Shown here: positions 2,100 to 41,061 of the stretch, one piece after another
Numbering within the stretch: the stretch's first letter is position 1
Layout of the letters: the number at the start of each line of letters is the position of its first letter
Source: an uncultured bacterium
Lineage (GTDB): Bacteria > Bacteroidota > Ignavibacteria > Kapaibacteriales > UBA2268
Direction of reading: 5' to 3'
Length of the DNA stretch: 64,000 nt
NCBI GenBank assembly: GCA_942492935.1
Contig: OW818654.1
Location: forward strand, 1,515,219 to 1,579,218
The notes under the pieces: model-generated
What the model was told of the DNA's origin: nothing
The model's database searches: none
Seen by the model: the letters and a program-made list of their open reading frames with translations, nothing else
Program-made: the position numbers and the translations under genes

Positions 2100-2123
2100 T
2101 TTGATTTAATGAAAATTATTATA

Positions 2124-2152
2124 AAACCTCTCATTTCGAGAGGTTTTTTTTT
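2124..2152 (+). terminator. Rho-independent terminator
   Basis: aaacctctcatttcgagaggttt hairpin followed by a T9 run, directly after the stop at 2099. Confidence 0.75.
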
Positions 2153-2212
2153 GTATCTAATTAAAAGCTGTAGCAACATAGGGCTTGCAAAAGTGCGGAG
2201 TTTCGTAAATAT

Positions 2213-2236
2213 TCATTCTGAACTCGTTTCAGAATC
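2213..2236. repeat. REP-like palindromic unit (CATTCTGAAC-N3-GTTTCAGAATCC family), single copy plus a degenerate half-copy at 2250-2266
   Basis: Same 24-26-bp dyad unit as the copies at 11477-11552, 12979-13007 and 15109-15270. Confidence 0.7.
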
Positions 2237-2544
2237 CATTCTTCATATTATGTCATTCTGAACCTGTTATTCCGAACATCGTGAGGAAACCAGAAATTGT
2301 TCATTTATATATTATTACTGGATTTTTCGTAAAAGCTATAAATGAAGAAATGCCATATAAAAATACATCCGTAGGTTGATTTGTTCTTGGATTTTCATGT
2401 TCTACTAAGGTTTATAAGTGCTCAGATTTTTAAATACCTTTATTTTAATTATTAACCTTAGTAGAAAGCAAAAAACCAATGACAATTAACCTTATTATTT
2501 ATATTGCTTTAATTTATTTTCAATTCTTGAAACTAAGAAGTTAT

Positions 2545-2820
2545 TTCGAAAGAAGACCTCAAAGAGGTCGAATGCTTATAGTAACTTTAATTTATATATG
2601 AATTCGACCTCGAAGTGGTCGTATCGTAGTAATTTCAGATTCAATTCTATAATCATTGAATCTCTTTGAGATTAAAAATATTCCTTTGAATAAAGACCTC
2701 GAAGAGGTCAAATGCTTATAGAATGTATAATTGACACATAAATTCGACCTCGCTGAGGTCGTATCGTAGTAATTTCAAATTATTTTCTATAATTATTGAA
2801 TCTCTTTGAGATTTAGTAAG
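2545..2820. repeat. Tandem duplication (2 x ~140 bp) of an intergenic module carrying three short hairpins per unit
   Basis: Two near-identical units. Each contains GACCTC-aaa-GAGGTC, CGACCtcgaagtGGTCG and AATCTC-ttt-GAGATT stem-loops. No ORF covers the region. Confidence 0.7.
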
Positions 2821-2946
2821 AAAATAAATTAAAATATATGCTTTTTGGAGCAGTGAAAATATTTTTTATTTTTTTTCATTCCTATGAAACGAAAAGTACT
2901 TTCATGTGTCATTATATATGTGAGAATTGCAAAGTTGGAAAAAGTT

Positions 2947-4221: not shown

Positions 4222-4554
4222 GTGAAATATGAAAAAAATATTAATTTTAAGTGTTATTGCAACAATTTCTATTTGCAATTTAATTTTACAAAATAGTGAA
4301 CTTATACAAATTTGACCAAAAATTAATTATTAATTATGAATAAAATAAATATGTATTCTACAATAGAGAATTATGTGAATTTAACTACAGATAATTGATT
4401 TTTTTATAAATAGTATGATTTTTTTTCTATTTTATTGCTATTTAATGAAATAAGTGAATTTTTTATTTTTCTATTCTAATTGAGTTTGTTAATTTTGTTT
4501 TTTTAAATATAAATTAATTAAATATTAAGTTTTAATAATCATTTTAGGTGTATA

Positions 4555-4851
4555 ATGACAAAAGCAGATATTGTTGATGAAATTGCAAAAGCAACGGGAT
4601 TGACAAAGATCGAAACAAAATCAGTGGTAGATGGTGTATTTTCAAGTATTGTAAATGCTATTGCGGAAGGAAAGAGAATTGAATTACGCGGTTTTGGTGT
4701 TTTCAAACAAAAAAGCCGTAAACCAAGAATGGCAAGAAATCCAAAAACTGGTGAATTAGTGCCATTGGAAAAGAGATTTGTACCGGTATTCAAACCATCT
4801 CCAGAGTTTTTAAATAAAGTAAATGAGAATATGAAAGGTTCTGAAGAATAA
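4555..4851 (+). CDS. HU/IHF-family nucleoid DNA-binding protein
   Basis: MTKADIVDEIAKATGLTK…RIELRGFGVFKQKSRKPRMARNPKTGELVPLEKRFVPVFKPS is a canonical HU fold signature (RNP-G-F arm motif). A terminator follows. Confidence 0.9.
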   Translation: MTKADIVDEIAKATGLTKIETKSVVDGVFSSIVNAIAEGKRIELRGFGVFKQKSRKPRMARNPKTGELVPLEKRFVPVFKPSPEFLNKVNENMKGSEE

Positions 4852-4870
4852 GCTATTCTTTATTAAACAT

Positions 4871-4902
4871 AAAAAAATGCCTCATTTAGAGGCATTTTTT
4901 TT
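4871..4902 (+). terminator. Rho-independent terminator after the HU gene
   Basis: atgcctcatttagaggcat hairpin followed by a T8 run. Confidence 0.75.
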
Positions 4903-4970
4903 AAAATTATGAAACTTTTTTTGCATTAATGTTTAATTAATATTTTGAATCATATATAAATGGTAAAGTT

Positions 4971-6875
4971 ATGAAAAAATACTTAGTTGCTGCTTTATTG
5001 TTCACTTGTTTTTTTGATTTATATTCACAGGATAATGAAAATCCTCTGAAAGAATTCTGGAAAAAAGAAAAAATTAAAATTAATGTGGAAGAAGCACTTA
5101 AAATTATCAATAGTCCTGAATATCAGGCAAATAAGCGACTTTTGGATAAGCGAACGAATAATGATGTATTACAAGCAGATAAATCAATTTTCAATGATAA
5201 TCAATCAAACATACCAGAATCTGAAATTCATTCAGCTATAAACCCAACAGACCCTTTGAACGTTGTAGTATCCCCTATCAGACAAAATCGTTTAGACCCT
5301 ACTGCTTCAATTACATGCCCGATTTATTATACTAAAGATGGTGGCAAAACTTGGAGTTTAAGTTCATTCCAAACTTCTCCTCCTGCTAAAGATTTTATGT
5401 TAGCTGGTGGTGGTGACCCAGTGTTTGCTTTTGATGCTAATGGAGTTTTATTTATGTCTTGGATACATTTGTATTTAACTTTACGAAATGTTGGAGAACC
5501 AAATAATCCAAATTTTACACCTGATTCGTTAATGGTTGGACTTTTTTATGCAAAATCAACTGATGGTGGTGCATCTTGGAATTATACTGGCTCAAGTATT
5601 GAATCAATTCAAAAATCAAAATACACCCAAAACCAAAATCCATCTTGGGATTTTATGCTTGATAAACAATGGATGGCAACTGATTTATCTAATTCTCAAT
5701 ATCGAAATTCTGTATATATGTCTGCTGTAAAAATAAGTTTTAAAACAGGCAAATATCAAATGGTTTTATACAGAAAAGAACCCAACTCAGATGAATTTTT
5801 AACAACACCTACTTTAATTAATACAGCTGGTTTTGCATCAGTTCAGTTTGGAAACGTTGATGTTGACAATGATGGGAATGTTCATTATACTTTTATGGGA
5901 ACAAATAGTTCAAATCAGTTCTTTCTTTATCATTGTATATCTGAAGACGGTGGAGCTACTTTTTCAAATCCTGTAAAAATTACAGAATTTACTGGCTCAA
6001 TGAGGCAATCTAATGGTTTTCAATTAATTGATGGAATCTCTGAAAGTAGATTATACCCTTCACCATATATGGCAGTTGATAAATCAAATGGAAAAAATAG
6101 TGGAAATATTTATATCACATGGACTGCAAATGGAATTACAAGTAATGTAGGCGCTGGTCATGATGTATATTTTTCATTTTCAGAAGACCAAGGAAAAACT
6201 TGGAGCAATCCAAGTGTTGTGAATGATAATTTCCCAAATGACAACACACATAGCTTTTATTCTAATATAGCTGTAAATGATAGTGGAGTAGTTGCAGTAA
6301 CTTTTTATGATAGAAGAAGTGATTTAGTAAATAATGTACAAACCGACTATTATATAGCATTTTCTTTTGATGGTGGAAATACTTTTGATAAAAACATAAA
6401 ATTAACTTCATCACCTTCAAATTTTCTTTATATTGGAAATCAAAATAACGGCTTTGGGATTGGTGAATACAATGGCGTAGTAATGACTGATAAATTTGCA
6501 TATCCATTTTGGGCTGATGGAAGAACCAATAACGGAGAAATTTTAATTTATACAGCTGAAGTTCCTATTGAAAAAAATGCTGGAGCTGTAAACTCATTAA
6601 ATCCAATAAATAATAAAATCAAAATTGATAACATAAGTCCAATTCCAGCAAATTCAAAATTATTGATTGATTTTACATTAGAATCTGAATTAGAATTGTC
6701 TTATGATATTATTGATTTAAAAGGAAATATTATTAAATCATTAGAAAATTCATATTTTAAAACTGGGGTAAATTCTTTTGAAATCAATCTTTTCGATATA
6801 ATTACAGGAACATATTTATTGAGAATAAATTCAAAAGTTGGTTATTTAATCAAAAAATTTACTGTTAAAAAATAA
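4971..6875 (+). CDS. BNR/Asp-box repeat (sialidase-fold) secreted protein with T9SS C-terminal domain
   Basis: Signal peptide MKKYLVAALLFTCFF. There are at least five S-x-D-x-G-x-T-W/F Asp-box motifs (DGGKTWS, DGGASWN, DGGATFS, DQGKTWS, DGGNTFD). The C-terminal region has a CTD-like beta-sandwich sequence. Confidence 0.7.
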   Translation: MKKYLVAALLFTCFFDLYSQDNENPLKEFWKKEKIKINVEEALKIINSPEYQANKRLLDKRTNNDVLQADKSIFNDNQSNIPESEIHSAINPTDPLNVVVSPIRQNRLDPTASITCPIYYTKDGGKTWSLSSFQTSPPAKDFMLAGGGDPVFAFDANGVLFMSWIHLYLTLRNVGEPNNPNFTPDSLMVGLFYAKSTDGGASWNYTGSSIESIQKSKYTQNQNPSWDFMLDKQWMATDLSNSQYRNSVYMSAVKISFKTGKYQMVLYRKEPNSDEFLTTPTLINTAGFASVQFGNVDVDNDGNVHYTFMGTNSSNQFFLYHCISEDGGATFSNPVKITEFTGSMRQSNGFQLIDGISESRLYPSPYMAVDKSNGKNSGNIYITWTANGITSNVGAGHDVYFSFSEDQGKTWSNPSVVNDNFPNDNTHSFYSNIAVNDSGVVAVTFYDRRSDLVNNVQTDYYIAFSFDGGNTFDKNIKLTSSPSNFLYIGNQNNGFGIGEYNGVVMTDKFAYPFWADGRTNNGEILIYTAEVPIEKNAGAVNSLNPINNKIKIDNISPIPANSKLLIDFTLESELELSYDIIDLKGNIIKSLENSYFKTGVNSFEINLFDIITGTYLLRINSKVGYLIKKFTVKK

Positions 6876-7274
6876 ATGAATAATAAGTAAAAAAATTGCT
6901 TTATTGGGATTAATAATTTTTATAGATGGGCGCCACTTCAATAATGGCGTCCATCTGTTCAAAAAAATATCAAAGAACTTCAATATATATTCATCTTCCA
7001 AATTCAATATAAATGATTCAGTGCATATATACGAACAAAATATATCAGTAACTTAGTAATAGTTATGAATCAAATCATTTCAAATATTTCATTGAATTTT
7101 TTGAAATTATGTCATTCAATTCACGTCAATTGTGAATATTTTGTCATAATATATAAAATTAGTTTTGCTATATTAACAATAAGTGCTAATTTTCGTTTTT
7201 AGTTAGTGCAATTTTCAAAAATGTTTTTTGAAATTGCAATTTAAAAGTTATTATTTATATTAGGTATAATTAAA

Positions 7275-8546
7275 ATGCAAATTTCAGGTTTAAGGTACGG
7301 TCAGCAACTATTGGATTTAGTGGAATTTCCACATTCAAAAGTACTGCTTGGAAGTGCCACAAATGAAGATATTGAGCAATTAATGAAAGCTACCGGTAAG
7401 GTAGTAGTTAAACCCTTCTTTTCCGGTGGAGTAGGAAAAAAAGGGAAAGCTGGTTTGGTAAAAGTAGCAAAATCATTGGAAGAAGCTATGAAAGCCAAAG
7501 AAGAGCTTTATTTTGCAAGTCATTTCTATGGTACAAAACCAATAAAATCTAATGGCATTACTTTTGAAGAATTTGTTCCGTCTGATTCTGATATGGAGTT
7601 ATATTTTAGCATAACTGATTCTACTGTCGAACGTAAACCAATCTTTACAATCACTCCTTATGGCGGAGTTGATATTGAAGAATTACCAGCCGATAAAAAA
7701 GCAGTTGTATGGATAGACCCTCTTATCGGAATTAAATCTTTCGATATTACAAACGCATTGAATGACCTTGGTTGTCCTGAAAAATATATTTCTCCTTTGG
7801 TTCAGCATATACCTAAATTATGGGATTTATACTATAATTTCGGTGTTTCAACTCTTGAAATCAATCCATTAAGAATAAAGAAAGTTGGCTCAAATTATAT
7901 TCCTGTTGCTTGCGATTTGAAAGCTTCATTCGACCAAGATAATCCAGATTGGAAACGTATTGGTTTGCCTCCTTCAATTTTTGTTAATGATTCTACAAAA
8001 TTTGAAACTGAAATCAATAAACTACGAACTTATCAAGGTCAAAGCGATGTTGTTGAAATAAATTCTAAAGGTACAATCATTCCTTATATGTTTGGTGGTG
8101 GTGCAAACTCTGCAGCTACTGAAACTCTCGGTGCTAAGGCAATTTTTGCATCTGACTTTGGTGGAAATCCTCCTTATGAAAAGATATATGAAATAAGTAA
8201 AATAGTATTTAATAATTGGATTAATCAGGCAAATGTATTGTTGATTATCGGTGGTAAAGCTAATAATACTGATATTTACGTTACATTGAAAGGTGTATTT
8301 GATGCTTTACGTGATGATATTGCATTAAATGGCAAAAAGCCGATTTATACTGTTATTGGCAGAGGTGGTCCAAATCTTATACAAGGTATGTTTTATGCAA
8401 AAGATATACTTGATACTTTAAAATTGCCATATAAATTCTTTGGATATGATTCTTCAATGATAAAAGTACTTGATTATGCTAAACGAATTGATGACTGGTG
8501 GGGTTTGGAAGGTAAAAATGATTATATCAATAAATATATTTTATAA
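7275..8546 (+). CDS. aclB: ATP-citrate lyase beta subunit-like (ATP-grasp, succinyl-CoA-synthetase-beta-like)
   Basis: ATP-grasp N-terminal pattern (…KVVVKPFFSGGVGKKGKAGLVKVAKSLEEA…) resembling SucC/AclB. It sits immediately upstream of a CoA-ligase-alpha/citrate-synthase fusion gene. Confidence 0.65.
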   Translation: MQISGLRYGQQLLDLVEFPHSKVLLGSATNEDIEQLMKATGKVVVKPFFSGGVGKKGKAGLVKVAKSLEEAMKAKEELYFASHFYGTKPIKSNGITFEEFVPSDSDMELYFSITDSTVERKPIFTITPYGGVDIEELPADKKAVVWIDPLIGIKSFDITNALNDLGCPEKYISPLVQHIPKLWDLYYNFGVSTLEINPLRIKKVGSNYIPVACDLKASFDQDNPDWKRIGLPPSIFVNDSTKFETEINKLRTYQGQSDVVEINSKGTIIPYMFGGGANSAATETLGAKAIFASDFGGNPPYEKIYEISKIVFNNWINQANVLLIIGGKANNTDIYVTLKGVFDALRDDIALNGKKPIYTVIGRGGPNLIQGMFYAKDILDTLKLPYKFFGYDSSMIKVLDYAKRIDDWWGLEGKNDYINKYIL

Positions 8547-8584
8547 TTTCAATTAATTAAGAAAATAATTCAGGTTAAAATAAA

Positions 8585-18670: not shown

Positions 18671-20791
18671 ATGAAAGATATAGATAAAATATTGAATAAT
18701 GTAAAATCATCAAGCATTCCCGAATTTCCATTTTCTGATTCGCAAGTCCGGACTGTGATTGAAAATGTGGATTCTAAAAATAATTTTCAAATAATTAAAA
18801 AAGGAGCAATAATTATGACTTTTCTTATTTCACTTGTAGCATTTATGCTGTATTTGGGAGTCGATTCAGCGTCTGATTTAATAAACAATAAACAGTCGAA
18901 TTTTTTAGATTCACAAACAAAAATCATAACACAATTAGAATCTACTGCAAACATTGATAATGAACAGCAAAAGGAAGAATCTACTTTTAACCAAAATAAT
19001 CAGCAAACTTCGGACATTAAAAAACAATCCAAAATCTATGATATTGCAATGAATGAAGTTCAAGCAGATGCAAAGAATGTTTTTACTATTTTCATTCCAG
19101 ATAAAAGTGAAATGGACAAATTGTTTATTAGAAAAACAAATTGTGGATATGTAATAATGACTGAAGAAAACTATCCAATTAACCAATTTAAAGTGCAAAT
19201 GGAACAAATCTACAAAAATAATTACCCCAAAAAAGGTTACAAAAGAGCAATTCAAGTTTTAAATTTTGATGATATTCAGGAAATTGGAATTGCTAATTAT
19301 ACTGGCTGGGAAATGGATAATTCTGCAGGAATTTTTCCAATTATGGCAAAACTTATCAACATTGATAAAAAATTCAAAAACACCAGAAGGTTTCTTAGCA
19401 AAGCATCCCCCGGTCCAATTGATATTTCAGAACTAAGTGATATTGTCAATAGCAAGTTTTTGAGATTTATTCATAATACACTTGAAAAGTTGGATGATAA
19501 AAATGCTGGAAATGAGTTAAAAATTACTTACAATAAAGATGAAAATGAGTATTTATCGCAGGTAAGTATTGTTCTTTTGGATTTGGATAATGATTCTACA
19601 AGTTCATTTTGGCTGTTGGTTTATCCAAATACGAGAAATTTTGTTAAACTTCTTCCAAATAGATTTAATAAAGAATCAGATTTTGATTTATTTTCAGATT
19701 TTGGAATGGACTATAATGAAAGTGAAATAAATAGTGAAATTAACTTAGCTATTAATAATTTAGATGTAGAATGCAAAAACAAAATAAATGAAATTAAACA
19801 AAATGCACCAAAAACAGTTTCAAAAATTAGTGGTATTGAAAAAATAATATTGACAAATGAAGAAGCAAAACAAATTGGTATTAATATTGAAAAAAGTATA
19901 ATTTCATTCGAAGCAGAAGAATATTCTGATTTGTCAGTTTTACCTGATAAAATTCAAACATATATACAAACTGAGTTTAATTATAATACAACGGGTTTTG
20001 CCCTTCTTAAGGAAAGAATTGAATTTGATATGAATAATACTAACAATATGATAAAACCTGTTGTACAAAAATATTCAGGTTGGGAACATAATTTATGGTC
20101 TAACATTTCTCCGGCTTGCATTACAGTAAATAGAACTCTACAAATCGGCAACATTGTATCGTTAAGCCAAATCTTTCAATCTCCGCATTTAGTTAGAGAT
20201 TCAGCATACTATTATTTAAATAGTGATGATATTATTGTTAGAGATTCATTAGGGAAATACAAAGCAAAGATTCCAAATTTAATTCCTGTCAATTTTAAAG
20301 AAATTTCTTATAATAATAATGGAGATTCAATAGTAAATAACATTGATATCTGGTATGTTATTACAAGAGAATTTGCAAATAGATTACCTAATAGATACAA
20401 ATTACCTTTAATCAAGGAACTCGATTTGCTAAGCAATATTGAAAATGGTTCTACCACTATTGATGATGCTTGTGAGGTATTGAAAGGTGAGAAATCTTAT
20501 TTAGGAATTTGCGAAATTCAAGGTGAATTATCAATTCTAAATATTTTTCCAAATCCAATTACAGAAAGTACAGCCACAATTAAATTTATTCTTAAAAGTG
20601 ATAAAAAATTAAAAATTGAACTTTTCAATTCAAATGGAGAATTATTAGAAACAGTAAAGGACTATTCAGAATACAATACAGGTATCAATAGTGTGAATCT
20701 TGAATTTTTTGATTTATCAAAAGGAGTAGTTTTAATTTCATTGACAGATGAAAGCAATCAAAGAGCAATAATCAAAGCTATTAAAAATTGA
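18671..20791 (+). CDS. Membrane-anchored anti-sigma-factor-like protein with a large extracytoplasmic domain and a T9SS C-terminal sorting domain
   Basis: Its start lies 10 nt after the sigma-factor stop. A ~45-aa N-terminal cytoplasmic segment precedes a single TM helix (AIIMTFLISLVAFMLYLGV). The C-terminus …LSILNIFPNPITESTATIKFILKSDKKLKIELFNSNGELLETV… is a canonical Por_Secre_tail. Confidence 0.55.
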   Translation: MKDIDKILNNVKSSSIPEFPFSDSQVRTVIENVDSKNNFQIIKKGAIIMTFLISLVAFMLYLGVDSASDLINNKQSNFLDSQTKIITQLESTANIDNEQQKEESTFNQNNQQTSDIKKQSKIYDIAMNEVQADAKNVFTIFIPDKSEMDKLFIRKTNCGYVIMTEENYPINQFKVQMEQIYKNNYPKKGYKRAIQVLNFDDIQEIGIANYTGWEMDNSAGIFPIMAKLINIDKKFKNTRRFLSKASPGPIDISELSDIVNSKFLRFIHNTLEKLDDKNAGNELKITYNKDENEYLSQVSIVLLDLDNDSTSSFWLLVYPNTRNFVKLLPNRFNKESDFDLFSDFGMDYNESEINSEINLAINNLDVECKNKINEIKQNAPKTVSKISGIEKIILTNEEAKQIGINIEKSIISFEAEEYSDLSVLPDKIQTYIQTEFNYNTTGFALLKERIEFDMNNTNNMIKPVVQKYSGWEHNLWSNISPACITVNRTLQIGNIVSLSQIFQSPHLVRDSAYYYLNSDDIIVRDSLGKYKAKIPNLIPVNFKEISYNNNGDSIVNNIDIWYVITREFANRLPNRYKLPLIKELDLLSNIENGSTTIDDACEVLKGEKSYLGICEIQGELSILNIFPNPITESTATIKFILKSDKKLKIELFNSNGELLETVKDYSEYNTGINSVNLEFFDLSKGVVLISLTDESNQRAIIKAIKN

Positions 20792-22234: not shown

Positions 22235-23344
22235 TCAATTTACATATTTCCCGAGTTCATCACTATCTGTATAAGCATAATATTTCATTACTGTATCTAA
22301 ACTATCTCTTGATAATTTGCTAACTATTTGAGGAGTTAATTTTTCTGTATATAACCATTCTGATATTCTTGTTTTTCGCAAAGTATGAATACAACGACCA
22401 TAGACTGCTTTTCGTTTTCTTTCTATGCCTGATATATTCATTTGTTTTGTGTTCCCATCTCCTACGGTATATTTTGGAATATTTAATGCTTCCAATCCCT
22501 TATTAAACCTATAGTCAATCGTTCTTGAATAATCTGATATGTTGAATATTTTACCTTTGCTTTCTTTCCTACTTTCTACTTGGTCAAATATATTTTTCAA
22601 TTTATCTGTCAATGGAAATTTGTCGGGCTTGTTACCAAATTTTGATTTTTCAAACATTATACTTTGTCTGTAATCACCATCTGTATTTAAGACTTGGTCC
22701 CATTCCATATTAACCGCTTCATTTTTACGCAATGCACAAATATAGATAGTTTGTATTAATAGATAAAATTGATAATTCTTTTCTTGCCAATAATCAAATA
22801 TTTTTTTTATTTCCTCTGGAGTATATATTTCAATTATTTTTTCTGTTTTTTTAGGTTTTAATGTTTTAATAATTGGATTTTTCCGCATCCATTCTCTTTC
22901 GATACAGTAATTGAAAAAACTTGATAACCTAATTAAATTAACCGTTGCCGTTTTTGAAGCGTGATTTCGTTTCAATAAATTATTTTCTATATGCAGAGTA
23001 ATTTTATTATCGTCATTCAAAATTAAATCTTCTGTAATATATGATTTGAATGAATAAATGTATTGCTGAAGTGTGTTTTTATGCTTAGTATTTTTCGATT
23101 GCTCAATGAAGATTTTGAACGCTTGAATGATTGTTACAGGATGATTTTCATTTCTGAAATGTTCTGGGCTTTCACTTTCTGCAATTATATCACCTGCGAT
23201 TTTACGATTTTTACGATTATAAATCAAACCGCAGGATTTCATTCTATTGCCTACTTTGTACCATATAATGCTCTTTTTACCACGAACAAAAAACCGTCCT
23301 TTACAGCCGGGCATTGAGTACGGTTTTTCTGGTGCTTTTTCCAT
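22235..23344 (-). CDS. int: Tyrosine site-specific recombinase (phage integrase family)
   Basis: The C-terminal catalytic region contains …GRCIHTLRKTRISEW (the H-x-x-R box) and …LDTVMKYYAYTDSDE, which carries the catalytic Tyr. An N-terminal SAM-like domain is present. 369 aa. Confidence 0.85.
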   Translation of the reverse strand: MEKAPEKPYSMPGCKGRFFVRGKKSIIWYKVGNRMKSCGLIYNRKNRKIAGDIIAESESPEHFRNENHPVTIIQAFKIFIEQSKNTKHKNTLQQYIYSFKSYITEDLILNDDNKITLHIENNLLKRNHASKTATVNLIRLSSFFNYCIEREWMRKNPIIKTLKPKKTEKIIEIYTPEEIKKIFDYWQEKNYQFYLLIQTIYICALRKNEAVNMEWDQVLNTDGDYRQSIMFEKSKFGNKPDKFPLTDKLKNIFDQVESRKESKGKIFNISDYSRTIDYRFNKGLEALNIPKYTVGDGNTKQMNISGIERKRKAVYGRCIHTLRKTRISEWLYTEKLTPQIVSKLSRDSLDTVMKYYAYTDSDELGKYVN

Positions 23345-30139: not shown

Positions 30140-31078
30140 ATGAATAATTGGATTAAATTATACAGAGCATTAAATAAGCATTGGGTTTTTGATAATTCCG
30201 ATTATTTAAAATTGTGGATTTATATACTGACTACTTGTGAGTATGAAACGGCGATCCGTAATTCTAATACTAAAAAAATAGAACTTCAACCGGGACAAAT
30301 GCTTTTCACTTTGGAAAATATGAGTGAGGTTTGCAATATGCCATACATAAAAATCAGACGGTTTATTGACAGGTGCATAAAGGACGATATGATAAGTATT
30401 AAGCTAAATTGTAAACAAAATTCAGTGCTAAGTGTTTTAAATTGGGAGACTTACCAATCTGTAAATGTCAATGAAAATAACGAAAAAACATTGAGCAGTC
30501 ATTTGAGCAGTCATTTGAGCAGTCATTTGAGCAGTCATTTGAGCAGTCATTCTGACGTTGTAAATGATGAAATACCAAAGAGTTATAAAGATGACGAAAA
30601 TAATTTGAGCAGTCATTTGAGCAGTCATTTGAGCAGTCATTTGAGCAGTCATTTGAGCAGTTCATATAATGATAAAGAGAATCCTAAGAATCCTAAGAAT
30701 AAAAAGAAAGAAGAAATAACTACTTTCTCTACTGCAAAAATGAATTTTTTAAATTTTGATTTTGTTTTGGAATTTGTAATTAATTCAATTCCAGAATCAA
30801 AAGTAATTTCAGAAGAGAATTTAAAATTTTCAGTAGAGAAGTGGTTAAATCTTAGAACTAATTCCGAATGGCGAAATAAAAATGGTGTTTTGATTTCCGA
30901 TTGGAAACAGGACATTAAAACTTGGATCAAAAATGAAATTATTTATCAACAAAATTTAAAAGGAAATAAAAATGATAGAAGCACAAGAGCTGGCAAGCAT
31001 ATTGACGAACCACAACAGGTCAATATCGAAGACACACTCCGAAAATTCGAGCAATGGAGAGAGAAAAATAACACTTGA
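30140..31078 (+). CDS. Replication initiator/replisome-organizer-like protein with internal (SSHL)n repeats
   Basis: N-terminal winged-helix-like segment (…LKLWIYILTTCEY…QPGQMLFTLENMSEVCNMPYIKIRRFIDRC…). Two blocks of 5 x 12-bp direct repeats lie within the ORF. Confidence 0.45.
   Translation: MNNWIKLYRALNKHWVFDNSDYLKLWIYILTTCEYETAIRNSNTKKIELQPGQMLFTLENMSEVCNMPYIKIRRFIDRCIKDDMISIKLNCKQNSVLSVLNWETYQSVNVNENNEKTLSSHLSSHLSSHLSSHLSSHSDVVNDEIPKSYKDDENNLSSHLSSHLSSHLSSHLSSSYNDKENPKNPKNKKKEEITTFSTAKMNFLNFDFVLEFVINSIPESKVISEENLKFSVEKWLNLRTNSEWRNKNGVLISDWKQDIKTWIKNEIIYQQNLKGNKNDRSTRAGKHIDEPQQVNIEDTLRKFEQWREKNNT
30487..30663. repeat. Iteron-like tandem repeats (two clusters of 5 x AGCAGTCATTTG separated by ~55 bp) inside the replication-initiator-like gene
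   Basis: Perfect 12-bp direct repeats at 30487-30546 and 30604-30663. Confidence 0.8.
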
Positions 31079-35502: not shown

Positions 35503-35573
35503 ATCCCCCTGCCCCCTTTTAAAAAAGGGGGAAAAGAAAAATCCCCTTAGAAAAAGGGGGAAGGGGGATTTCC
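35501..35573. terminator. GC-rich three-hairpin element (copy A), probable bidirectional terminator at a convergent junction
   Basis: aaatccccctgcccccttttaaaaaagggggaaaagaaaaatccccttagaaaaagggggaagggggatttcc contains three C5 and three G5 runs that can pair as a Y-shaped junction. A near-identical copy is at 39713-39785. Confidence 0.6.
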
Positions 35574-36098
35574 TAAACTGTGTGTATTACCTGCACTCCA
35601 TTTTCACTGAATTTTATTTTTACTTTTTCATTCAAAAAATCGTAAACCTCTATCAAAAAACCGATATAAAATTGATTTATAGGATTGTTTATATTTACTT
35701 TATTTTCTAAAATATTTGCAAATTGCAAAGTGTCAAGCTCCGAATTAATCGGAGCATATTTTTTATAAATATTGATAGTATCAAATAATGTTTGGTAGTA
35801 TAACATTTTTAAGCACCTTTTTTGATAAAATAATAATTTGCAATATTGCTAATTTGTTCTTGTGGAGTTAAAAATTTGAAACTGTTTTCATTCCATAAAT
35901 CAAACGTCTCAATGTAAATATCGGAGTAATTTTCTTGAGTTTGTTTAAAGAAATTATAAACTATGTTTATATCGTAAATTTCTTGATTTTCCTGCGTTCT
36001 AATAGCTTTATTTGTTCTATTTGATTGAATGTAATATAATAGAAAATTTAAAAATATTTTACTTTTATTCTTAAAAATATATTCTTTATGAATTAAAT

Positions 36099-36587
36099 CT
36101 AATAATGTTTGGTCATCATAAGACCAAGTTTATCAATTGAATGCTCAATCATATATTTAATTTCTGGAATAGTAATTTTAAAGAATTTTAATTCATTTAT
36201 CAAAAAATCTAATGTTTTTTGATATTTGTAATTAGATATTTTTTCAATCTTTATATCTGGGAGATTTAATTCATTTTTATAGCTATTATAAATTTTCAAA
36301 ATTTTGTCAATAGGTCCGATATAGCAATTTTTTCTATAAATAAATTCAATAAAAACATTTTCATAATTATCAATTGTAATTTGTTCAAATTCAATTTGAA
36401 ATTGATAATTATTAAAAGCATTATAGCGACTAACATTTTTTTCTTGAGTAGGAATTTTAGTAATTACATCACTACTCCAAATTTGATTTTCTTTAGTATT
36501 GATAAGCAAAAATATTGCTAATCTATAGTTTTTAAAAGCAACGTTTTGCAACGTTGCTATTACTTTTTTAGTTTCATTTAAATTCAT
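36099..36587 (-). CDS. Hypothetical protein
   Basis: ORF abutting the J-domain gene, separated from it by 1 nt. Confidence 0.4.
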   Translation of the reverse strand: MNLNETKKVIATLQNVAFKNYRLAIFLLINTKENQIWSSDVITKIPTQEKNVSRYNAFNNYQFQIEFEQITIDNYENVFIEFIYRKNCYIGPIDKILKIYNSYKNELNLPDIKIEKISNYKYQKTLDFLINELKFFKITIPEIKYMIEHSIDKLGLMMTKHY

Positions 36588-36588
36588 T

Positions 36589-37140
36589 TTAAGCTCCTTT
36601 CAATTCTTTTTTTGAATAACTATTCATAATTTTTGAACCGTATTTATTTCTAATATCAATAATGTTTTGTGGTTTACTTTTAAATGATTTTTTCAATTCA
36701 TTAGGACGCCAAAACCACATTTTTTTGCCCGGAGCAAATAAAAACCCAATTTCTTTTAATTCGTTTTTAATTGGAAAAGTAGCACCACTTAACCAAATCC
36801 ACGAGCCGATTAATTCAATAATTACAAATTCAAAATTGATAATTTTATTAATAATTTCTTTATATTCCATTTCTAAATCAATATCAATAAAATCATTTTC
36901 TACATTTGAATTATTCATAGTAGCAATATTTAACAATAAATATTCATATTCATTATTTATTTGTTGCATTATTGAAGTAGCTTGAGGATCTTTATTTATA
37001 TCGGGATGCCAAATTTTAGCGAGCCGTTTATATTCATTTTTCAATGAATTTAAATCATAGCAATTTTTTAAATATTCAATTTCAATCTTTTTCATTTTTT
37101 TATTCCTATATCTAAATTTAAATTTTCTTTTTAGTAACAA
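36589..37140 (-). CDS. J-domain (DnaJ-like) protein
   Basis: …YKRLAKIWHPDINKDPQATSIMQQINNEYEYLL shows the HPD tripeptide inside a helix II/III J-domain context. Confidence 0.65.
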   Translation of the reverse strand: MLLKRKFKFRYRNKKMKKIEIEYLKNCYDLNSLKNEYKRLAKIWHPDINKDPQATSIMQQINNEYEYLLLNIATMNNSNVENDFIDIDLEMEYKEIINKIINFEFVIIELIGSWIWLSGATFPIKNELKEIGFLFAPGKKMWFWRPNELKKSFKSKPQNIIDIRNKYGSKIMNSYSKKELKGA

Positions 37141-37493
37141 ACTTTGTTACAAATATAGTAACGTATTAGTTTCAAAAAAGTTTCAAAGAAAATAAAAATA
37201 ATTTTCAAAAAAAATATTTTTAAATCTTAATCCTATGAAAAATATAATACTTAGTATTAGAAAATAATTTTTAAGAAAAAAAAATAAAAATAATTTGAAA
37301 CATTTTGAAACTAAAAACGTATATATAAATGTAATCAAAATGATTACAAAAAAAATAAAGTAAATAATTTTATGAATAAAGTAATATTTCAATAAAATAA
37401 TTTGCAACAAATTGAAACTAAAATCGTATATAAAAAAGTAACAAAGTATGTTACGGAAAAGAATTTTTAAAATTAATATAAGGAATTAAAAAA
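37141..37493. promoter_or_regulatory. Divergent regulatory region with three copies of a TTTGAAACTAA(A/T)ACGT(A) motif
   Basis: The motif occurs at 37165-37180 in inverted orientation and at 37305-37322 and 37410-37426 in direct orientation. GTAAC/GTTAC dyads are also present (gttacaaatatagtaac). Confidence 0.5.
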
Positions 37494-37754
37494 ATGTATA
37501 GCTATGAATTATTAGAAAATGGAATTTTTATCAAGGGAGATTTTTCGCAATATCTAACCGGACCATACTTAGATTTAGAATTTAGTTTGATTGAAATTAA
37601 CGGAGATTCGGGGATAGAATATACTCCAGAAGGTTTGTTTGTTTATAATATTGTGGATAATAATCCAGAATATTTTTACATAATTGAAAAAAATTCAATA
37701 GGTGAAACTATTGCAAAAATTACAATTGAAAATAATAAATTATTAATTATTTAA
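37494..37754 (+). CDS. Hypothetical small protein (first of four cassette-like genes)
   Basis: ORF followed by the conserved hairpin-SD cassette. Confidence 0.4.
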   Translation: MYSYELLENGIFIKGDFSQYLTGPYLDLEFSLIEINGDSGIEYTPEGLFVYNIVDNNPEYFYIIEKNSIGETIAKITIENNKLLII

Positions 37755-37797
37755 ATCATCGCCCGGCTCGTGCCGGGCTATATAAGGAGCAGAAAAA

Positions 37798-38031
37798 ATG
37801 GAATATTTAATTAATGAAGATGACCATGTTTTAATAGAATTTGATAATTCTATCACAGTAGATATGGATTTAAGAATAGATTATAAAGATTCAAACGAAG
37901 GAGTTGGATTTTGGAATATCGAAATTTTAACTCCAGATTTTAAAATTCTTTTAGAAGATGACACAAAAGAAAATGCACTCACAAAATCATTAAATATGGT
38001 TAAAAGTTTAAATTATTATTATAGTCTTTAA
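37798..38031 (+). CDS. Hypothetical small acidic protein
   Basis: Starts at the ATG of cassette 1. Confidence 0.4.
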   Translation: MEYLINEDDHVLIEFDNSITVDMDLRIDYKDSNEGVGFWNIEILTPDFKILLEDDTKENALTKSLNMVKSLNYYYSL

Positions 38032-38078
38032 TTTAATCACCGCCCGGCTCGTGCCGGGCTATATAAGGAGCAGAAAAA

Positions 38079-38432
38079 ATGAAATCCAATTTAGATTTTT
38101 TAATAGGTGTTTCAATTAGAAAAAACACAAATACCACAGATGTATTTAAGATCTTAAAATTTATTTGGTCAGAGGATGATAAAATTTGCTGGGTTTGGGG
38201 TGAAATAAGCGATTTTAAAACCTCAATTGTAAGTAGTTATGTTAAATTTGCTATATTTACGGAATCATCTATTTCAAGCGAAGAGTTTGATTTTTTGTCG
38301 GAACAATCGGAAGCAATAAACGTTGCAACAGATATAAATGAAACTATTACATTGATAAAAATTTTAGTATGGGCGGAAAGTGATTGTTTTAATGAAGAAA
38401 GATCATTTTATCATATTGTAAATAATATTTAA
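38079..38432 (+). CDS. Hypothetical small protein
   Basis: Starts at the ATG of cassette 2. Confidence 0.4.
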   Translation: MKSNLDFLIGVSIRKNTNTTDVFKILKFIWSEDDKICWVWGEISDFKTSIVSSYVKFAIFTESSISSEEFDFLSEQSEAINVATDINETITLIKILVWAESDCFNEERSFYHIVNNI

Positions 38433-38474
38433 TCACCGCCCGGCTCGTGCCGGGCTATATAAGGAGCAGGAAAA

Positions 38475-38885
38475 ATGGAAATCATTTTAGATAAAACTTT
38501 GATTAAAGATGTTCCAAATACACAGTATAAAATTAGTATTACAAGAGACAAAAATGTTAGATTTAGCAAATATTTGTCTCAAGAATTAAATTATAAATTT
38601 GCTATTACTAAAAATGGAAATGATTTATTTCTTTTCAGTATAGGAAGTGGTTTAGAAATTGCAAATAATCACTATTGCAAGGTAAAAATCGCAGGTGAAA
38701 TTCTTTTAGAAAATTCGAATTTAAGAGATTACGGTGCTTGGGATCTATTGGCAGAAAAAACGGAAATTGACAATGAAACTTATTGGAAATTATCAATTCC
38801 AGAATCAACATTAGAACTATATAGAGAAATTGACGCAAGAAATGAAGAGTGGGCAAAAGACGAAGAGACAGAAGAGGCAGAATGA
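38475..38885 (+). CDS. Hypothetical small acidic protein
   Basis: Starts at the ATG of cassette 3. Confidence 0.4.
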   Translation: MEIILDKTLIKDVPNTQYKISITRDKNVRFSKYLSQELNYKFAITKNGNDLFLFSIGSGLEIANNHYCKVKIAGEILLENSNLRDYGAWDLLAEKTEIDNETYWKLSIPESTLELYREIDARNEEWAKDEETEEAE

Positions 38886-39397
38886 ACTACATTAGAACCG
38901 CAGAAACTTTAGAGCCGGAGTATAATGACCCGGCTCTCGGAGTATATTATCATTTAGAAAATGATGAATCAGCTTATATTGAAATTAAAATGCAAAAAAA
39001 AGCTACTCAATACTACTTTTCAGGGCTTGTTAGTATTCCAAATTTGCTCCATATTTTGCATTGGTTGCATTCTGGAGTTGATAACGTGAAAAAGTTCTAT
39101 GAAATGCTAAACAGTGGGGAGATTGAAGTTTTCCCGCAGGAAATGCTCGAATATATGCAAGAAGAAAACGAATTATTTGGTGATGATGATAATTTCCCGC
39201 GATGGATTAAGGATTATAATTTATGTGAAGATGTGGAATTTCCAGAATTTGAATCTAAAGAAATAATATTAAGTTTACCACCAAAACCAACTGAAAAAAA
39301 ATATTCACGTTCAGATTGGGGTAGTATGAGTGGTATAGGTACTGAAGAATTTTATAATTTGTATCTCAAAAAAAATGAAAAAGTATCAACAAAATAA
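38882..39397 (+). CDS. Hypothetical protein
   Basis: Start chosen at the ATGA overlap with the upstream gene. Confidence 0.4.
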   Translation: MNYIRTAETLEPEYNDPALGVYYHLENDESAYIEIKMQKKATQYYFSGLVSIPNLLHILHWLHSGVDNVKKFYEMLNSGEIEVFPQEMLEYMQEENELFGDDDNFPRWIKDYNLCEDVEFPEFESKEIILSLPPKPTEKKYSRSDWGSMSGIGTEEFYNLYLKKNEKVSTK

Positions 39398-39463
39398 TTT
39401 AGAAGCATACACAGTAATATTTCTTATTGTGGTTGTCGGATATTTGATTTATAAACTATTTGA

Positions 39464-39709
39464 ATGGATTTTAAAATGAGAAATGATATATTTTTGAAAG
39501 GGAAATATAGAGGTTTACTGACTAAGCTATCAAAAGAATACGGCAAAACAAGACCATATTTGAGGAAGTGTTTTTTCACTCCCGAAAATGATAATATGCT
39601 CGAAATAAAAGCAAAAATTATTGAAGAAATGAAATTGATAAATGAAGATAACAGTTTTGCAGATAAAAATAAAGAGCTTGACAAAGTTGTAAGCTCGCTG
39701 ATGAAGTGA
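39464..39709 (+). CDS. Hypothetical small protein
   Basis: Last rightward ORF before GC-rich element copy B. Confidence 0.35.
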   Translation: MDFKMRNDIFLKGKYRGLLTKLSKEYGKTRPYLRKCFFTPENDNMLEIKAKIIEEMKLINEDNSFADKNKELDKVVSSLMK

Positions 39710-39712
39710 GGA

Positions 39713-39785
39713 AATCCCCCTGCCCCCTTTAATAAAGGGGGAAAAGAAAAATCCCCCTTAGAAAAAGGGGGAAGGGGGATTTTTC
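39713..39785. terminator. GC-rich three-hairpin element (copy B), probable bidirectional terminator
   Basis: ggaaatccccctgccccctttaataaagggggaaaagaaaaatcccccttagaaaaagggggaagggggattttt is near-identical to 35501-35573. Confidence 0.6.
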
Positions 39786-40111
39786 TATATTTTCTTTATA
39801 TAATGGCTGGCAACGTTGTCAAAAAACGCATTGAATATGCTTTTTGCGAAGTTCCCGCCTGTTTCTTTCAATTCCATTTCAGTCTCTTTTGTCATACGTA
39901 TTCGCTTGCGTTTACGTTTCATTTGAGTTTCAATTTTCGTTTCTTTTGCTGGAAATTCTATATCTTTGATTACTTGAGCATACTCAACATTAATCTCTGA
40001 CATAATTTCATTGCTACCACCTTTGTCTGGGTGATGTTCCTTTGCTAATGTCCTGTACAGTTCATCGGCTTCAGTCAATGTTTTGACCATTTTGAAATAT
40101 TTATAATCCAT
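39785..40111 (-). CDS. J-domain (DnaJ-like) protein, second copy
   Basis: …YRTLAKEHHPDKGGSNEIMSEINVEYAQVIKD is an HPD motif in J-domain context. Confidence 0.65.
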   Translation of the reverse strand: MDYKYFKMVKTLTEADELYRTLAKEHHPDKGGSNEIMSEINVEYAQVIKDIEFPAKETKIETQMKRKRKRIRMTKETEMELKETGGNFAKSIFNAFFDNVASHYIKKI

Positions 40112-40131
40112 TACTCCTCCGGTTTGTTAAA

Positions 40132-40413
40132 TCAATCTGCGAATCTACCACGACCACGGCTTAATGCTTTTTTCCTTAGCAATTGTTTTTTAGTCATACG
40201 CTTTGCTTTACCCGCTGATTTCTTATATTTTTTCTTGATAAATGCACTTAACTGTGTATCATAAGGTTGAGCTTTTTCAATTCCCATACCTTTTACACGC
40301 TTTTTAGCAAATTTTCCTTTTTTCCATAAATCACCGTTCCACTGCATACGAGCTGCTGCTGCTCTTTGTTGCGTTTTTGGAATTTTGCCAAATTTTCTAC
40401 CTGTCTTAGCCAT
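40132..40413 (-). CDS. Very basic Lys/Arg-rich small protein (histone-like or DNA-condensing candidate)
   Basis: 93 aa, about 35% K+R (…KKGKFAKKRVKGMG…KKKYKKSAGKAKRMTKKQLLRKKALSRGRGR…). Confidence 0.45.
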   Translation of the reverse strand: MAKTGRKFGKIPKTQQRAAAARMQWNGDLWKKGKFAKKRVKGMGIEKAQPYDTQLSAFIKKKYKKSAGKAKRMTKKQLLRKKALSRGRGRFAD

Positions 40414-40437
40414 TTTACTGCTCCGAATAATGAATTA

Positions 40438-41061
40438 TTAATTATTAAAGATTGGAAATTCCATATCTTTTTTGATTTTTTTGTAAAGATAACGATTTTT
40501 GGTATGACAATCTGCAATACCATCTTCTGCGTGAATAACAACTTCAGCTAAATGCAGAACGTCATTTTCACCTTTAAAACTTTTTCCACCTTTCAATGAG
40601 AACAAAACACTTATAAAACTAATAGCTTGCTCTTTATAATCATTGTGAAGCATAAACAGATCCATTACAGTTTTTTGGTTAAACATAGCAATTTTTGAAA
40701 TACTGTCCATAATTACAAACTTATATTTGCCTGTATCAATCTGCTGTTTGATTGAATTTAATTCGCAATTATCCCAAAAATGAATTGTAGGACTGCTGAT
40801 TTTCAAAGCCCTTGCTTTACTTTGAATTGTACCACCTGCGAGGTTTTCCTCCGCATTTATGTACAAAACCCTGCCACTCCTTGAAAGCATATCAGCAAGT
40901 TTTAAAGCAAATGATGATTTACCTCCAAATGATGGACCAGTTAATAACATTGTCCATTGAACATTTGAAGGAATTTGACCTAAGAATTTGTTCCATTTTA
41001 ACGGCATATTCAGAGGTTTTACTTTGTAACCAATTGTATGAGATAATGGTGTTGCTTTCAT
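40438..41061 (-). CDS. RecA/KaiC/DnaB-C-terminal-like P-loop ATPase (207 aa)
   Basis: Walker A LLTGPSFGGKSSFALKL. Walker B …YKFVIMDSISKI (hhhhDS type, RecA-like rather than FtsK/HerA DE type). Confidence 0.55.
   Translation of the reverse strand: MKATPLSHTIGYKVKPLNMPLKWNKFLGQIPSNVQWTMLLTGPSFGGKSSFALKLADMLSRSGRVLYINAEENLAGGTIQSKARALKISSPTIHFWDNCELNSIKQQIDTGKYKFVIMDSISKIAMFNQKTVMDLFMLHNDYKEQAISFISVLFSLKGGKSFKGENDVLHLAEVVIHAEDGIADCHTKNRYLYKKIKKDMEFPIFNN

Follow-up and report, generated by a model that had tools for sequence, protein, structure and literature searches.

The locus raises the question of what a short unit does when it recurs three times between small genes, each time running from the end of one gene through a G·C hairpin and a Shine-Dalgarno (SD) sequence to the ATG of the next. 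The array sits in an integrase-bearing prophage-like element covering about 22.2-61.5 kb of the window, meaning the whole 64-kb stretch of DNA that was analysed. The element carries a repressor-like gene and is not T4-like, and the window also holds 23 kb of DNA from a host with type IX secretion (T9SS) genes. The original prediction had described an array of four small genes at 37494-38885; these four are indeed joined by the linkers, but the operon runs on through two more genes, forming a six-gene accessory operon on the + strand (37494-39709). Its genes and flanking signals are as follows.

37305 to 37325, + strand: promoter- or operator-like 21-mer TTGAAACTAAAAACGTATATA, copy 1, then the AT hairpin TGTAATC-AAAA-GATTACA (motif repeat; putative function)
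37412 to 37432, + strand: promoter- or operator-like 21-mer, copy 2, then the palindrome GTAAC-N7-GTTAC (motif repeat)
37494 to 37754, + strand: g1, 86 aa, pI 4.1, ORFan, with its own ribosome-binding site (RBS) ATATAAGGAATTAAAAAAATG and no hairpin (ORF, codon usage, protein searches)
37798 to 38031, + strand: g2, 77 aa, pI 4.1, singleton at 90% identity, no family match (ORF, codon usage, Pfam/PHROG)
38079 to 38432, + strand: g3, 117 aa, pI 4.4, ORFan (ORF, codon usage, HMMER search)
38475 to 38885, + strand: g4, 136 aa, pI 4.7, ORFan (ORF, codon usage, protein search)
38882 to 39397, + strand: g5, 171 aa, pI 4.6, start overlapping the g4 stop (ATGA), no cassette (ORF, codon usage)
39464 to 39709, + strand: g6, 81 aa, pI 9.4, last gene of the operon and its sole basic product (ORF, codon usage)
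39709 to 39785, either strand: long G5/C5 hairpin at the operon end, -48 to -49 kcal/mol, with A/T runs at its flanks (folding, terminator scan)

Scored with the codon usage of the prophage itself, each of the six ORFs does best in its annotated frame, and g1-g6 have no match in Pfam, PHROG or PADLOC. The proteins of g1-g4 are all acidic and share no pairwise similarity, bearing out the expectation that the genes flanking the units are unrelated. The products of g1-g5 are all singleton clusters; those of g1, g3 and g4 have no homologue besides themselves in very large protein collections, with g3 matching nothing but itself when HMMER was run exhaustively over 1.84 billion cluster representatives. 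Single-sequence AlphaFold2 models of g4 and g3 are of low confidence (pLDDT 48 and 41, respectively), and like the family searches they lend no support to the anti-defence or host-takeover character suggested for the locus. Judging by the ATGA overlap, g5 is translationally coupled to g4.

Upstream of the operon, the 21-mer occurs in two exact + strand copies and one related - strand copy (37160-37175), all within the divergent intergenic region 37141-37493. At the other end, the hairpin at 39709-39785 is probably a bidirectional terminator; a second copy lies at 35503-35575, and where operons of the element really end, the hairpin is 70 nt long (-45 to -49 kcal/mol). Canonical sites composed of a hairpin and a T-run were found elsewhere in the same element.

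The repeated unit contains a 32-nt core, GCCCGGCTCGTGCCGGGCTATATAAGGAGCAG, present in three exact + strand copies (37761-37792, 38042-38073 and 38438-38469; 0 mismatches) in the 64-kb window, with no further copy at up to three mismatches and a chance expectation of 0 (absent from 100 of 100 shuffles). The hairpin core CCGGC-N4-GCCGG gave the same outcome, with three sites only in the window, and an nhmmer profile built from the three copies found no degenerate fourth cassette there. One such candidate in g5 (38925-38970, with CCCGGCTC in common) was rejected as unsupported by nhmmer. Aligned with their flanks, the copies define a repeat of about 52 nt, TTTAA(A)TCA(C/T)C-GCCCGGC-TCGT-GCCGGGC-TATATAAGGAGCAG(A/G)AAAAATG, and similarity among them ends at its left edge and at the ATG. 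The linkers and their hairpins are located as follows.

37750 to 37800, + strand: linker cassette 1, with the g1 TAA stop, 6 nt, the hairpin, TATATAAGGAGCAGAAAAA and the g2 ATG (sequence, alignment, nhmmer)
37761 to 37778, + strand: hairpin 1, GCCCGGC-TCGT-GCCGGGC, 7 G·C pairs, -17 kcal/mol (folding, stem scan)
38031 to 38081, + strand: linker cassette 2, just downstream of the g2 stop (sequence, alignment, nhmmer)
38042 to 38059, + strand: hairpin 2 (folding, stem scan)
38427 to 38477, + strand: linker cassette 3, containing the g3 TAA stop, with G for A in the spacer (sequence, alignment, nhmmer)
38438 to 38455, + strand: hairpin 3 (folding, stem scan)

Outside the core, the cassette copies are near-identical, not identical: copy 1 has an additional A, plus a T replacing C, at the left edge, and copy 3 a G replacing A six bases 5' of the ATG. 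The upstream stop codon lies within the repeat for g1 and g3, while the g2 stop (38029-38031) is 5 nt upstream of it. A 45-bp unit, repeated exactly three times and including the stop codon, had been predicted. Exact matches and alignment confirm three real copies of a fixed stop, hairpin, SD and ATG arrangement between unrelated small genes, but the unit is longer than was proposed, is identical only in its core, and takes in the stop codon in two of the three cases.

The three hairpins are the only all-G·C stems of at least 6 bp in the 64 kb, each an all-G·C 18-mer against local DNA of 21-29% G+C. Every copy abuts or contains the upstream stop codon, forms the hairpin (-17 kcal/mol) and leaves the SD and AUG unpaired, in minimum-energy as in centroid folds of the cassette, neither of which extends the stem beyond 7 bp. 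Since the hairpin starts 5-10 nt 3' of the upstream stop codon, a terminating ribosome would melt it. Deleting the hairpin in silico lowered the predicted probability of an unpaired SD from 0.58 to 0.26 and from 0.79 to 0.61 in two of the three contexts and left SD accessibility unchanged for copy 1, a small effect overall. No Rfam family reached its gathering score in the window, with sub-threshold noise only at the locus.

The 7-bp all-G·C hairpin is the new part of the unit, and the 3' half is the prophage's ordinary strong RBS. The cassette SD is strong (UAAGGAG, with GGAG 9 nt from the AUG and an A-rich spacer), and the RBS of g1 is of the same type, with the hairpin missing. The pattern TATAAGGA(G/A)-N8-ATG stands upstream of g1 and of the genes starting at 51510, 54072, 54789 and 59004 (these four on the minus strand), with differing spacers, and a GGAG, AGGA or GAGG core is found at -20 to -5 in 34 of the 64 element genes, against a background of 5.8%. 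A full SD precedes none of the 10 large host ORFs of the window, one of which (13180) has a weak AGGA core; the host genes there have A-rich leaders.

Several known kinds of repeat and RNA signal bear comparison with the cassette. REP-type hairpins, as in malE-malF, are intercistronic mRNA stabilisers belonging to host-wide repeats, and the RNase III sites between the early genes of phage T7 are extended, irregular hairpins of at least some 20 bp. The cassette is like both in placing between cistrons a stem-loop able to block exonucleases and to uncouple the fates of neighbouring cistrons, but its stem is 7 bp and fused to a fixed RBS, and no dispersed copies of the REP/BIME type were seen across the window's 23 kb of host DNA. 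RNase III sites of the T7 early-region type have a double-stranded stem of about two helical turns, and an RNase III processing site was rejected, the 7-bp stem being too short and gaining no extension in the folds. The RNA processing first suggested for the hairpins is not supported by a stem of this length or by Rfam, nor did an effect on stability find support. Integron attC sites, imperfect palindromes of 57-141 bp with RYYYAAC/GTTRRRY core sites, require the IntI integrase; they too part arrays of unrelated small ORFs by hairpin-capable repeats. An attC site was rejected, as the cassette has neither these core sites nor the length nor IntI, the sole integrase (22235-23344) being a phage- or Bacteroidota-type tyrosine recombinase 15 kb from the array. 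The lambda nut site combines boxB (a 5-bp stem with a GNRA-like pentaloop) with an upstream boxA, and was rejected on the 7-bp stem, the UCGU loop, and the lack of a boxA-like CGCTCTT and of an Rfam match. A CRISPR-like array was rejected on its spacings of 281 and 396 bp and the coding nature of the intervening sequence, and a restriction-site explanation on the finding that CCGG is not avoided in the window; a MITE was also considered and rejected.

By analogy, the cassette resembles the gene-shuffling linkers of T4-type phages, the PeSL (promoter-early stem-loop) cassettes (Arbiol et al. 2010, PMC2839356; Comeau et al. 2014, PMC4122927), whose anatomy comprises a stop codon, an AT-rich stretch, a stem-loop, an SD and an ATG between flanking ORFans, with recombination into mini-circles (PMC2839356). 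In both, a short conserved intergenic unit leads in AT-rich sequence from an upstream stop through a G/C stem-loop and an SD to an ATG, and is repeated between small unrelated ORFans in a plastic region; direct repeats this long may recombine, deleting or inserting the flanked gene. However, PeSL holds a strong sigma-70-like early promoter (-35/-10), whereas none is detectable here, searches of the cassettes for a sigma-70-type site, for the Bacteroidota-type TAnnTTTG and for the element's promoter-like motif having come up empty. The two also differ in number (three copies within 1 kb of one operon, against dozens per T4-type genome) and in carrier (an integrase-bearing prophage-like element in a T9SS-type host, against a T4-type myovirus), and PeSL has no sequence similarity to the cassette.

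A second parallel is offered by the start-associated sequences (SAS) of cluster K mycobacteriophages, with the 13-bp consensus GGGATAGGAGCCC located 3-8 bp upstream of start codons, and by their extended form (ESAS), 17-bp imperfect inverted repeats with a 4-13 bp spacer directly upstream of SAS (Pope et al. 2011, PMC3203893). Here, too, SD-containing repeats lie just upstream of the starts of unrelated genes, and the extended form adds an upstream inverted repeat. SAS and ESAS are genome-wide and conserved across subclusters, with a suspected role in translation (PMC3203893). In contrast, the cassette reads TATATAAGGAGCAGAAAAAATG and has only the GGAG core in common with the SAS consensus, and it has perfect 7-bp arms, a 4-nt spacer and three local copies, such that the arrangement is analogous and the element different.

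Searches for relatives returned no close relative of the element in the phage, plasmid, IMG/VR, GTDB representative or metagenome collections. Blastn against 50,697 phage records gave no match for 36000-41000 (distant mode) or for 1-20000 (near mode), and the 58-nt unit had, among phages and plasmids, partial chance matches to one half or the other only. It had been proposed that metagenomes be searched for the cassette so as to catalogue the genes it drives; the exact-pattern scan gave 0 matches in metagenomes and 0 in IMG/VR, and in GTDB representative genomes it gave five single matches in unrelated, mostly GC-rich genomes. A loose pattern, GCCCGGC-N3-6-GCCGGGC-N0-6-TAAGGAG, was found in more than 120 metagenome contigs, with 86 matches from one human-gut locus and the remainder from unrelated, mostly GC-rich organisms. 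These contigs have one copy each except L025 (58% G+C), with two copies of an unrelated variant, and tblastn related none of them to the element. The loose-pattern contigs show that a GC stem-loop ahead of an SD and an ATG is a generic arrangement, but they supply no homologue. Exact-protein look-ups of the window proteins in a gene-position index gave no record. Homologues of the neighbouring J-domain protein, at most 45% identical and in unrelated mobile elements, had no comparable cassette at their loci, nor did the stretches examined of two distant relatives, L136 and L140 (49% and 38% identity), reached through the terminator element and a CHAP protein.

The reading that we prefer, still tentatively, is of the unit as a linker cassette without a promoter, set between the cistrons of a polycistronic accessory operon in the prophage-like element and spread recently by recombination. 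The promoter-like repeats at 37305 and 37412 would drive transcription of the operon as far as the long terminator, and on the operon mRNA each cassette would strongly and independently restart translation for the next ORFan. The hairpin would serve as a compact barrier shielding the RBS from pairing with arbitrary upstream coding sequence and may also block exonucleolytic decay, its attenuation of transcription being weak at most; the likely function is ordinary gene-expression plumbing. The linker copies would have been made recently, via recombination or gene conversion between linkers. Because the ORFs are unrelated and RBSs of the same type elsewhere in the element differ at every non-SD position, recent copying accounts for the identity of the copies better than constraint does, in keeping with the modular linker originally proposed. 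Moreover, 52-nt direct repeats could bring about the loss or gain of the genes beside them, as has been shown for PeSL cassettes of T4-type phages, and gene swapping by the cassette is suggested by that analogy. The evidence comprises three copies in one operon of one genome.

It is unlikely, in our view, that the hairpins are leaky intrinsic terminators (attenuators) producing a stepwise gradient g1 > g2 > g3 > g4, with possible relief when a ribosome terminating 5-10 nt upstream prevents hairpin formation. Such a role is compatible with a stable G+C-rich stem-loop of -17 kcal/mol, a stop codon 5-10 nt from the stem, and a 7-nt all-A/U tail, UAUAUAA, that could permit partial termination; PeSL stem-loops, often without a classic U-tract, terminated transcription in reporter assays (PMC2839356). 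Yet no U-tract lies 3' of the hairpin, three of the first eight bases of the tail TATATAAG being T, and the terminator scan reported none of the three sites. In addition, the element uses canonical T-run sites and its dedicated long hairpin elsewhere, and three leaky terminators in series would starve g4-g6 of transcripts. This explanation is therefore disfavoured on the missing U-tract and the operon's own much stronger terminator.

We give somewhat less credence to the copies being remnants of a local duplication of an RBS region that chanced to hold a hairpin, in which case the SD would work, the hairpin would be functionless and the identity would reflect young age. All copies do lie within one 1-kb stretch and differ by single edge substitutions, and no conservation could be demonstrated in the other collections searched. 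However, a local duplication would carry flanking ORF sequence too, whereas in all three copies similarity breaks off precisely at the stop codon on one side and the ATG on the other, and the ORFs are unrelated; furthermore, an all-G·C 18-mer is unlikely to persist three times at 21-29% G+C unless tolerated or selected.

A bolder proposal, doubtful to a slightly greater degree, would have the cassette dedicated to capturing and expressing genes in a lineage of temperate phages of T9SS (FCB-group) bacteria, as an equivalent of PeSL or attC that has no promoter and needs no integrase. On this proposal a protein would specifically recognise the G·C hairpin, be it an endoribonuclease that cuts the operon mRNA into units or a recombination factor, and the extended SD would draw in ribosomes in a host with genes that do not themselves rely on SD.

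Also improbable, and a shade more so, is that the 7-4-7 palindrome acts as a DNA site for a dimeric protein, be it a roadblock repressor that keeps the operon silent in the lysogen, much as at the stoperators of cluster A mycobacteriophages, or a nuclease or recombinase whose target promotes cassette exchange. The two arms of the inverted repeat match perfectly, the operon closes with the gene of a small basic protein (g6), other palindromes (GTAAC-N7-GTTAC) occur in promoters of the same region, and the PeSL authors speculated on a stem-binding recombination protein (PMC2839356). Nevertheless, no promoter region of the window contains the palindrome, no DNA-binding domain could be recognised in g6, operators are rarely confined to positions between cistrons, and the constant placement of the palindrome with respect to the stop codon and SD suggests that it acts as RNA. 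Finally, a true PeSL-type cassette with an internal promoter, making each ORFan its own transcription unit with a short A-rich leader, is very improbable: TATATAA 3' of the hairpin could serve as a -10 or -7, the anatomy otherwise fits PeSL subclasses with the stem-loop upstream of the -10, and host genes in the window have A-rich leaders without an SD, but there is no -35 or -33 partner at a permitted spacing, a start 6-8 nt past TATATA would remove an SD placed as in more than half of the element's genes, and the element's own promoter-like motif is missing from the cassette.

If the linker does mediate both the expression and the exchange of ORFans, PeSL-type shuffling would no longer be confined to virulent T4-type phages but would also take in a temperate element of a very different host group, and the cassette would be a sequence tag for cataloguing the accessory genes of the lineage. 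Bacteroidia ribosomes reportedly do not respond to SD sequences (PMC7797042, PMC9976891), and the cassette SD is among the strongest in an element where more than half of the genes have one. Should the host be a member of the Bacteroidia, the working of the SD half would itself be puzzling, and the locus would provide a compact test case for the translation of such phages.

Four ORFs, g1–g4, follow one another on the plus strand between 37200 and 39200 as the sequence reads, separated by gaps of 43, 47 and 42 nt:

37494-37754, plus strand, g1, 86 aa
37798-38031, plus strand, g2, 77 aa
38079-38432, plus strand, g3, 117 aa
38475-38885, plus strand, g4, 136 aa

Each gap carries the 32-mer GCCCGGCTCGTGCCGGGCTATATAAGGAGCAG with 0 mismatches (at 37761, 38042 and 38438), while no further match occurs in the 64 kb with 3 mismatches allowed and none in 100 shuffles; the hairpin core on its own returns the same three sites and no other in the window. 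Alignment of the three copies with 50-nt flanks delimits a cassette of ~52 nt, consisting of TTTAA(A)TCA(C/T)C, the hairpin GCCCGGC-TCGT-GCCGGGC and TATATAAGGAGCAG(A/G)AAAAATG, with sharp left and right borders beyond which similarity is lost at once. A profile of the three copies detected no degenerate fourth cassette in the window. The original prediction of a hairpin, Shine-Dalgarno (SD) and ATG unit before 37798, 38079 and 38475 is thereby borne out, although “repeated exactly” holds for the 32-mer and not for the variable positions outside it, and its interpretation is supported in part. The repeat includes the TAA stops of g1 and g3; the stop codon of g2 is 5 nt upstream of it. As had also been claimed, the hairpins are conspicuous in their AT-rich context (21–31% G+C around the array), for the whole window holds 16 perfect stems that are 6 bp or longer and contain 5 or more G·C pairs, and these three alone are all-G·C.

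The operon continues with g5, whose start overlaps g4 by ATGA with no cassette at the junction, and g6, whose end adjoins a probable terminator. The annotated frame gives the best score under the element's own codon usage for all six ORFs, so g1–g6 are genuine genes and not obviously foreign. No protein pair among them shows significant similarity, in agreement with the earlier description of the flanking genes as unrelated. The acidic products of g1–g5 (pI 4.0–4.7; g6 is basic) are all singleton clusters from one NCBI genome. In a 5.8-billion-cluster search g1 and g4 returned only self-matches, and so did g3 when 1.84 billion representatives were scanned exhaustively with HMMER. Since Pfam, PHROG and PADLOC gave no match for g1–g6 and single-sequence structure models were unreliable (pLDDT 48 for g4 and 41 for g3), the proposed anti-defence or host-takeover label is a guess from size, charge and position. 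A 34-codon ORF at 39375-39479, bridging the g5 end and the g6 start, encodes a single hydrophobic helix (MKKYQQNNLEAYTVIFLIVVVGYLIYKLFEWILK) and may specify a small membrane peptide of this operon.

The 3' half of the cassette corresponds to the element's normal strong ribosome-binding site, because TATAAGGA(G/A), ~8 nt and ATG also precede g1, there without a hairpin, sites of this type precede several minus-strand late genes (starts 51510, 54072, 54789 and 59004), and 34 of 64 element genes have a core of GGAG, AGGA or GAGG between -20 and -5, in many cases as TATAAGGA, against a background of 5.8%. The spacer differs at each late-gene site; any spacer is evidently tolerated, but spacer, loop and linker are the same in all three cassettes, for which a recent common origin is a better explanation than constraint.

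Tentatively, we favor a promoter-less intercistronic linker in which the SD module would restart translation at the next gene, the hairpin would act as an RNA-level barrier or insulator, a weak attenuator at most, and the copies would have arisen recently through recombination between linkers. The hairpin has a folding energy of -17 kcal/mol, and the SD and AUG stay single-stranded beside it. When 160-nt contexts are folded by partition function without the hairpin, the predicted probability of an unpaired SD falls from 0.58 to 0.26 in copy 2 and from 0.79 to 0.61 in copy 3, with no drop in copy 1 (0.89 to 0.92), which weakly supports an insulating role. Because 5–10 nt separate the stop codon from the hairpin, its 5' arm would be covered and melted by a ribosome terminating there. 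At 7 bp, the stem is too short for RNase III, and Rfam holds no family matching it. A leaky terminator is unlikely, as the sequence 3' of the hairpin (UAUAUAAGG) has no U-tract and the hairpins go unreported by a scan that detects the element's canonical sites. A young duplication without function is quite unlikely, and a DNA palindrome bound by protein is improbable. That the cassette contains a promoter is highly improbable, given that it holds no sigma-70-type promoter, Bacteroidota-type -7 motif or copy of the local promoter-like motif TTGAAACTAA.A.CGT..TATAT.

In the promoter-early stem-loop cassettes (PeSLs) of T4-type phages, a stop codon in AT-rich sequence is followed by a G/C stem-loop, an SD and the ATG; these cassettes flank ORFans, and recombination between them deletes, inserts or circularizes the flanked gene (PMC2839356, PMC4122927). 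Our cassette shares this anatomy in all respects but the promoter, which PeSLs have and which was not detected here. It also resembles the start-associated sequences (SAS/ESAS) of cluster K mycobacteriophages, SD-containing repeats of unknown function that stand at the starts of genes and have an inverted repeat upstream of them (PMC3203893). It belongs to neither family, some defining features of each being absent; the cassette may be a variant of this known type of phage regulatory linker, seen in three copies in one genome. It was not found in INPHARED phages, PLSDB plasmids, IMG/VR, GTDB representative genomes or JGI/ENA metagenome contigs. A deliberately permissive pattern (GCCCGGC...GCCGGGC hairpin, then TAAGGAG and ATG) matched many contigs, in single copy in all but one and with no relatives of the element among them, which marks the arrangement in itself as commonplace; what sets this locus apart is having three identical copies of it between ORFans. 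Homologues of neighboring genes are distant (≤45% identity, apart from a CHAP protein at 49%) and lie in other contexts.

The array sits between the element's long plus-strand and minus-strand blocks, in a separate module whose edges are two copies of a G5/C5 hairpin (AAATCCCCCTGCCCCCTTT..AAAGGGGG..CCCC..GGGGGAAGGGGGATTT), one at the end of each of two plus-strand operons:

35503-35575, both strands, long G5/C5 hairpin, ~70 nt
39709-39785, both strands, long G5/C5 hairpin, ~70 nt

These fold at -45 to -49 kcal/mol and are probable bidirectional terminators. The 5' part, CCCCCTGCCCCCTTT-N-AAGGGGG, recurs in four contigs of IMG/VR (L136–L139; 34–57% G+C). L136, a viral contig of 5 kb, encodes the CHAP protein 49% identical to the element's, and its copy of the shared C5/G5 element is followed at once by a 42-nt unit repeated in tandem at least 8 times (L136:37-465). 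Within the module, two minus-strand genes (36099-37140), one encoding a J-domain protein, diverge from g1–g6. J-domain (DnaJ-like) proteins of phrog_15863 lie on both sides of the operon on the minus strand (36589-37140 and 39785-40111), with homologues in diverse integrative elements beside RadC and DUF6876 genes. The 350-nt divergent region (37141-37493) holds three copies of the promoter-like motif, each followed by a small palindrome (TGTAATC-N4-GATTACA once, GTAAC-N7-GTTAC twice):

37305, plus strand, promoter-like motif
37412, plus strand, promoter-like motif
37160-37175, minus strand, promoter-like motif

Their layout suggests that both operons are driven by a duplicated unit made up of a promoter and either an operator or a 5' hairpin.

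The element is prophage-like and extends from a tyrosine integrase (22235-23344, minus strand) to ~61.5 kb, with a repressor-like gene and a long plus-strand block encoding a DnaD-like loader and a DNA methyltransferase at its left end, and a long minus-strand block with an ATPase, an endolysin-like gene, collagen-like fiber genes and CHAP and SLT domain proteins at its right. Pfam and PHROGs recognized no capsid, portal or terminase among the ORFs tested (22200-61500); the element is possibly an atypical or defective phage, or else a locus for phage-like particles. In the DnaD-like replication gene (30140-31078), two blocks of the 12-nt tandem repeat TTGAGCAGTCAT at 30459-30673 could be iteron-like origin repeats inside an initiator gene.

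The host part (1 to ~21000) encodes proteins with type IX secretion (T9SS) C-terminal sorting domains, an ATP-citrate-lyase-like pair, an IS110 transposase and a NorB-type nitric oxide reductase. The 33-nt perfect palindrome AGATGTCCAACACTTTTAAAGTGTTGGACATCT occurs in identical form at 11399-11431 and 15181-15213, on either side of a stretch holding the IS110-family transposase gene (12008-12973) and the T9SS-domain gene that follows; it is possibly a REP-like repeat of the host or a target of IS110. Site counts in the 64-kb window (GGCC 2, GCGC 4 and CGCG 5, where the prophage part by itself should have ~28 of each; CCGG, at 59, is not avoided) suggest strong restriction-site avoidance common to host and element.

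Of the 10 large host ORFs in the window, a single one has an SD core, and that a weak one, against a background of ~5–6% in host and element alike. Bacteroidia ribosomes reportedly do not recognize SD sequences (PMC7797042, PMC9976891). If the host, characterized here by its T9SS content, belongs to the Bacteroidia, translation of an SD-reliant element needs explaining. What most deserves attention at this locus is the element's heavy reliance on SD sequences beside host genes nearly without them, rather than the hairpin.
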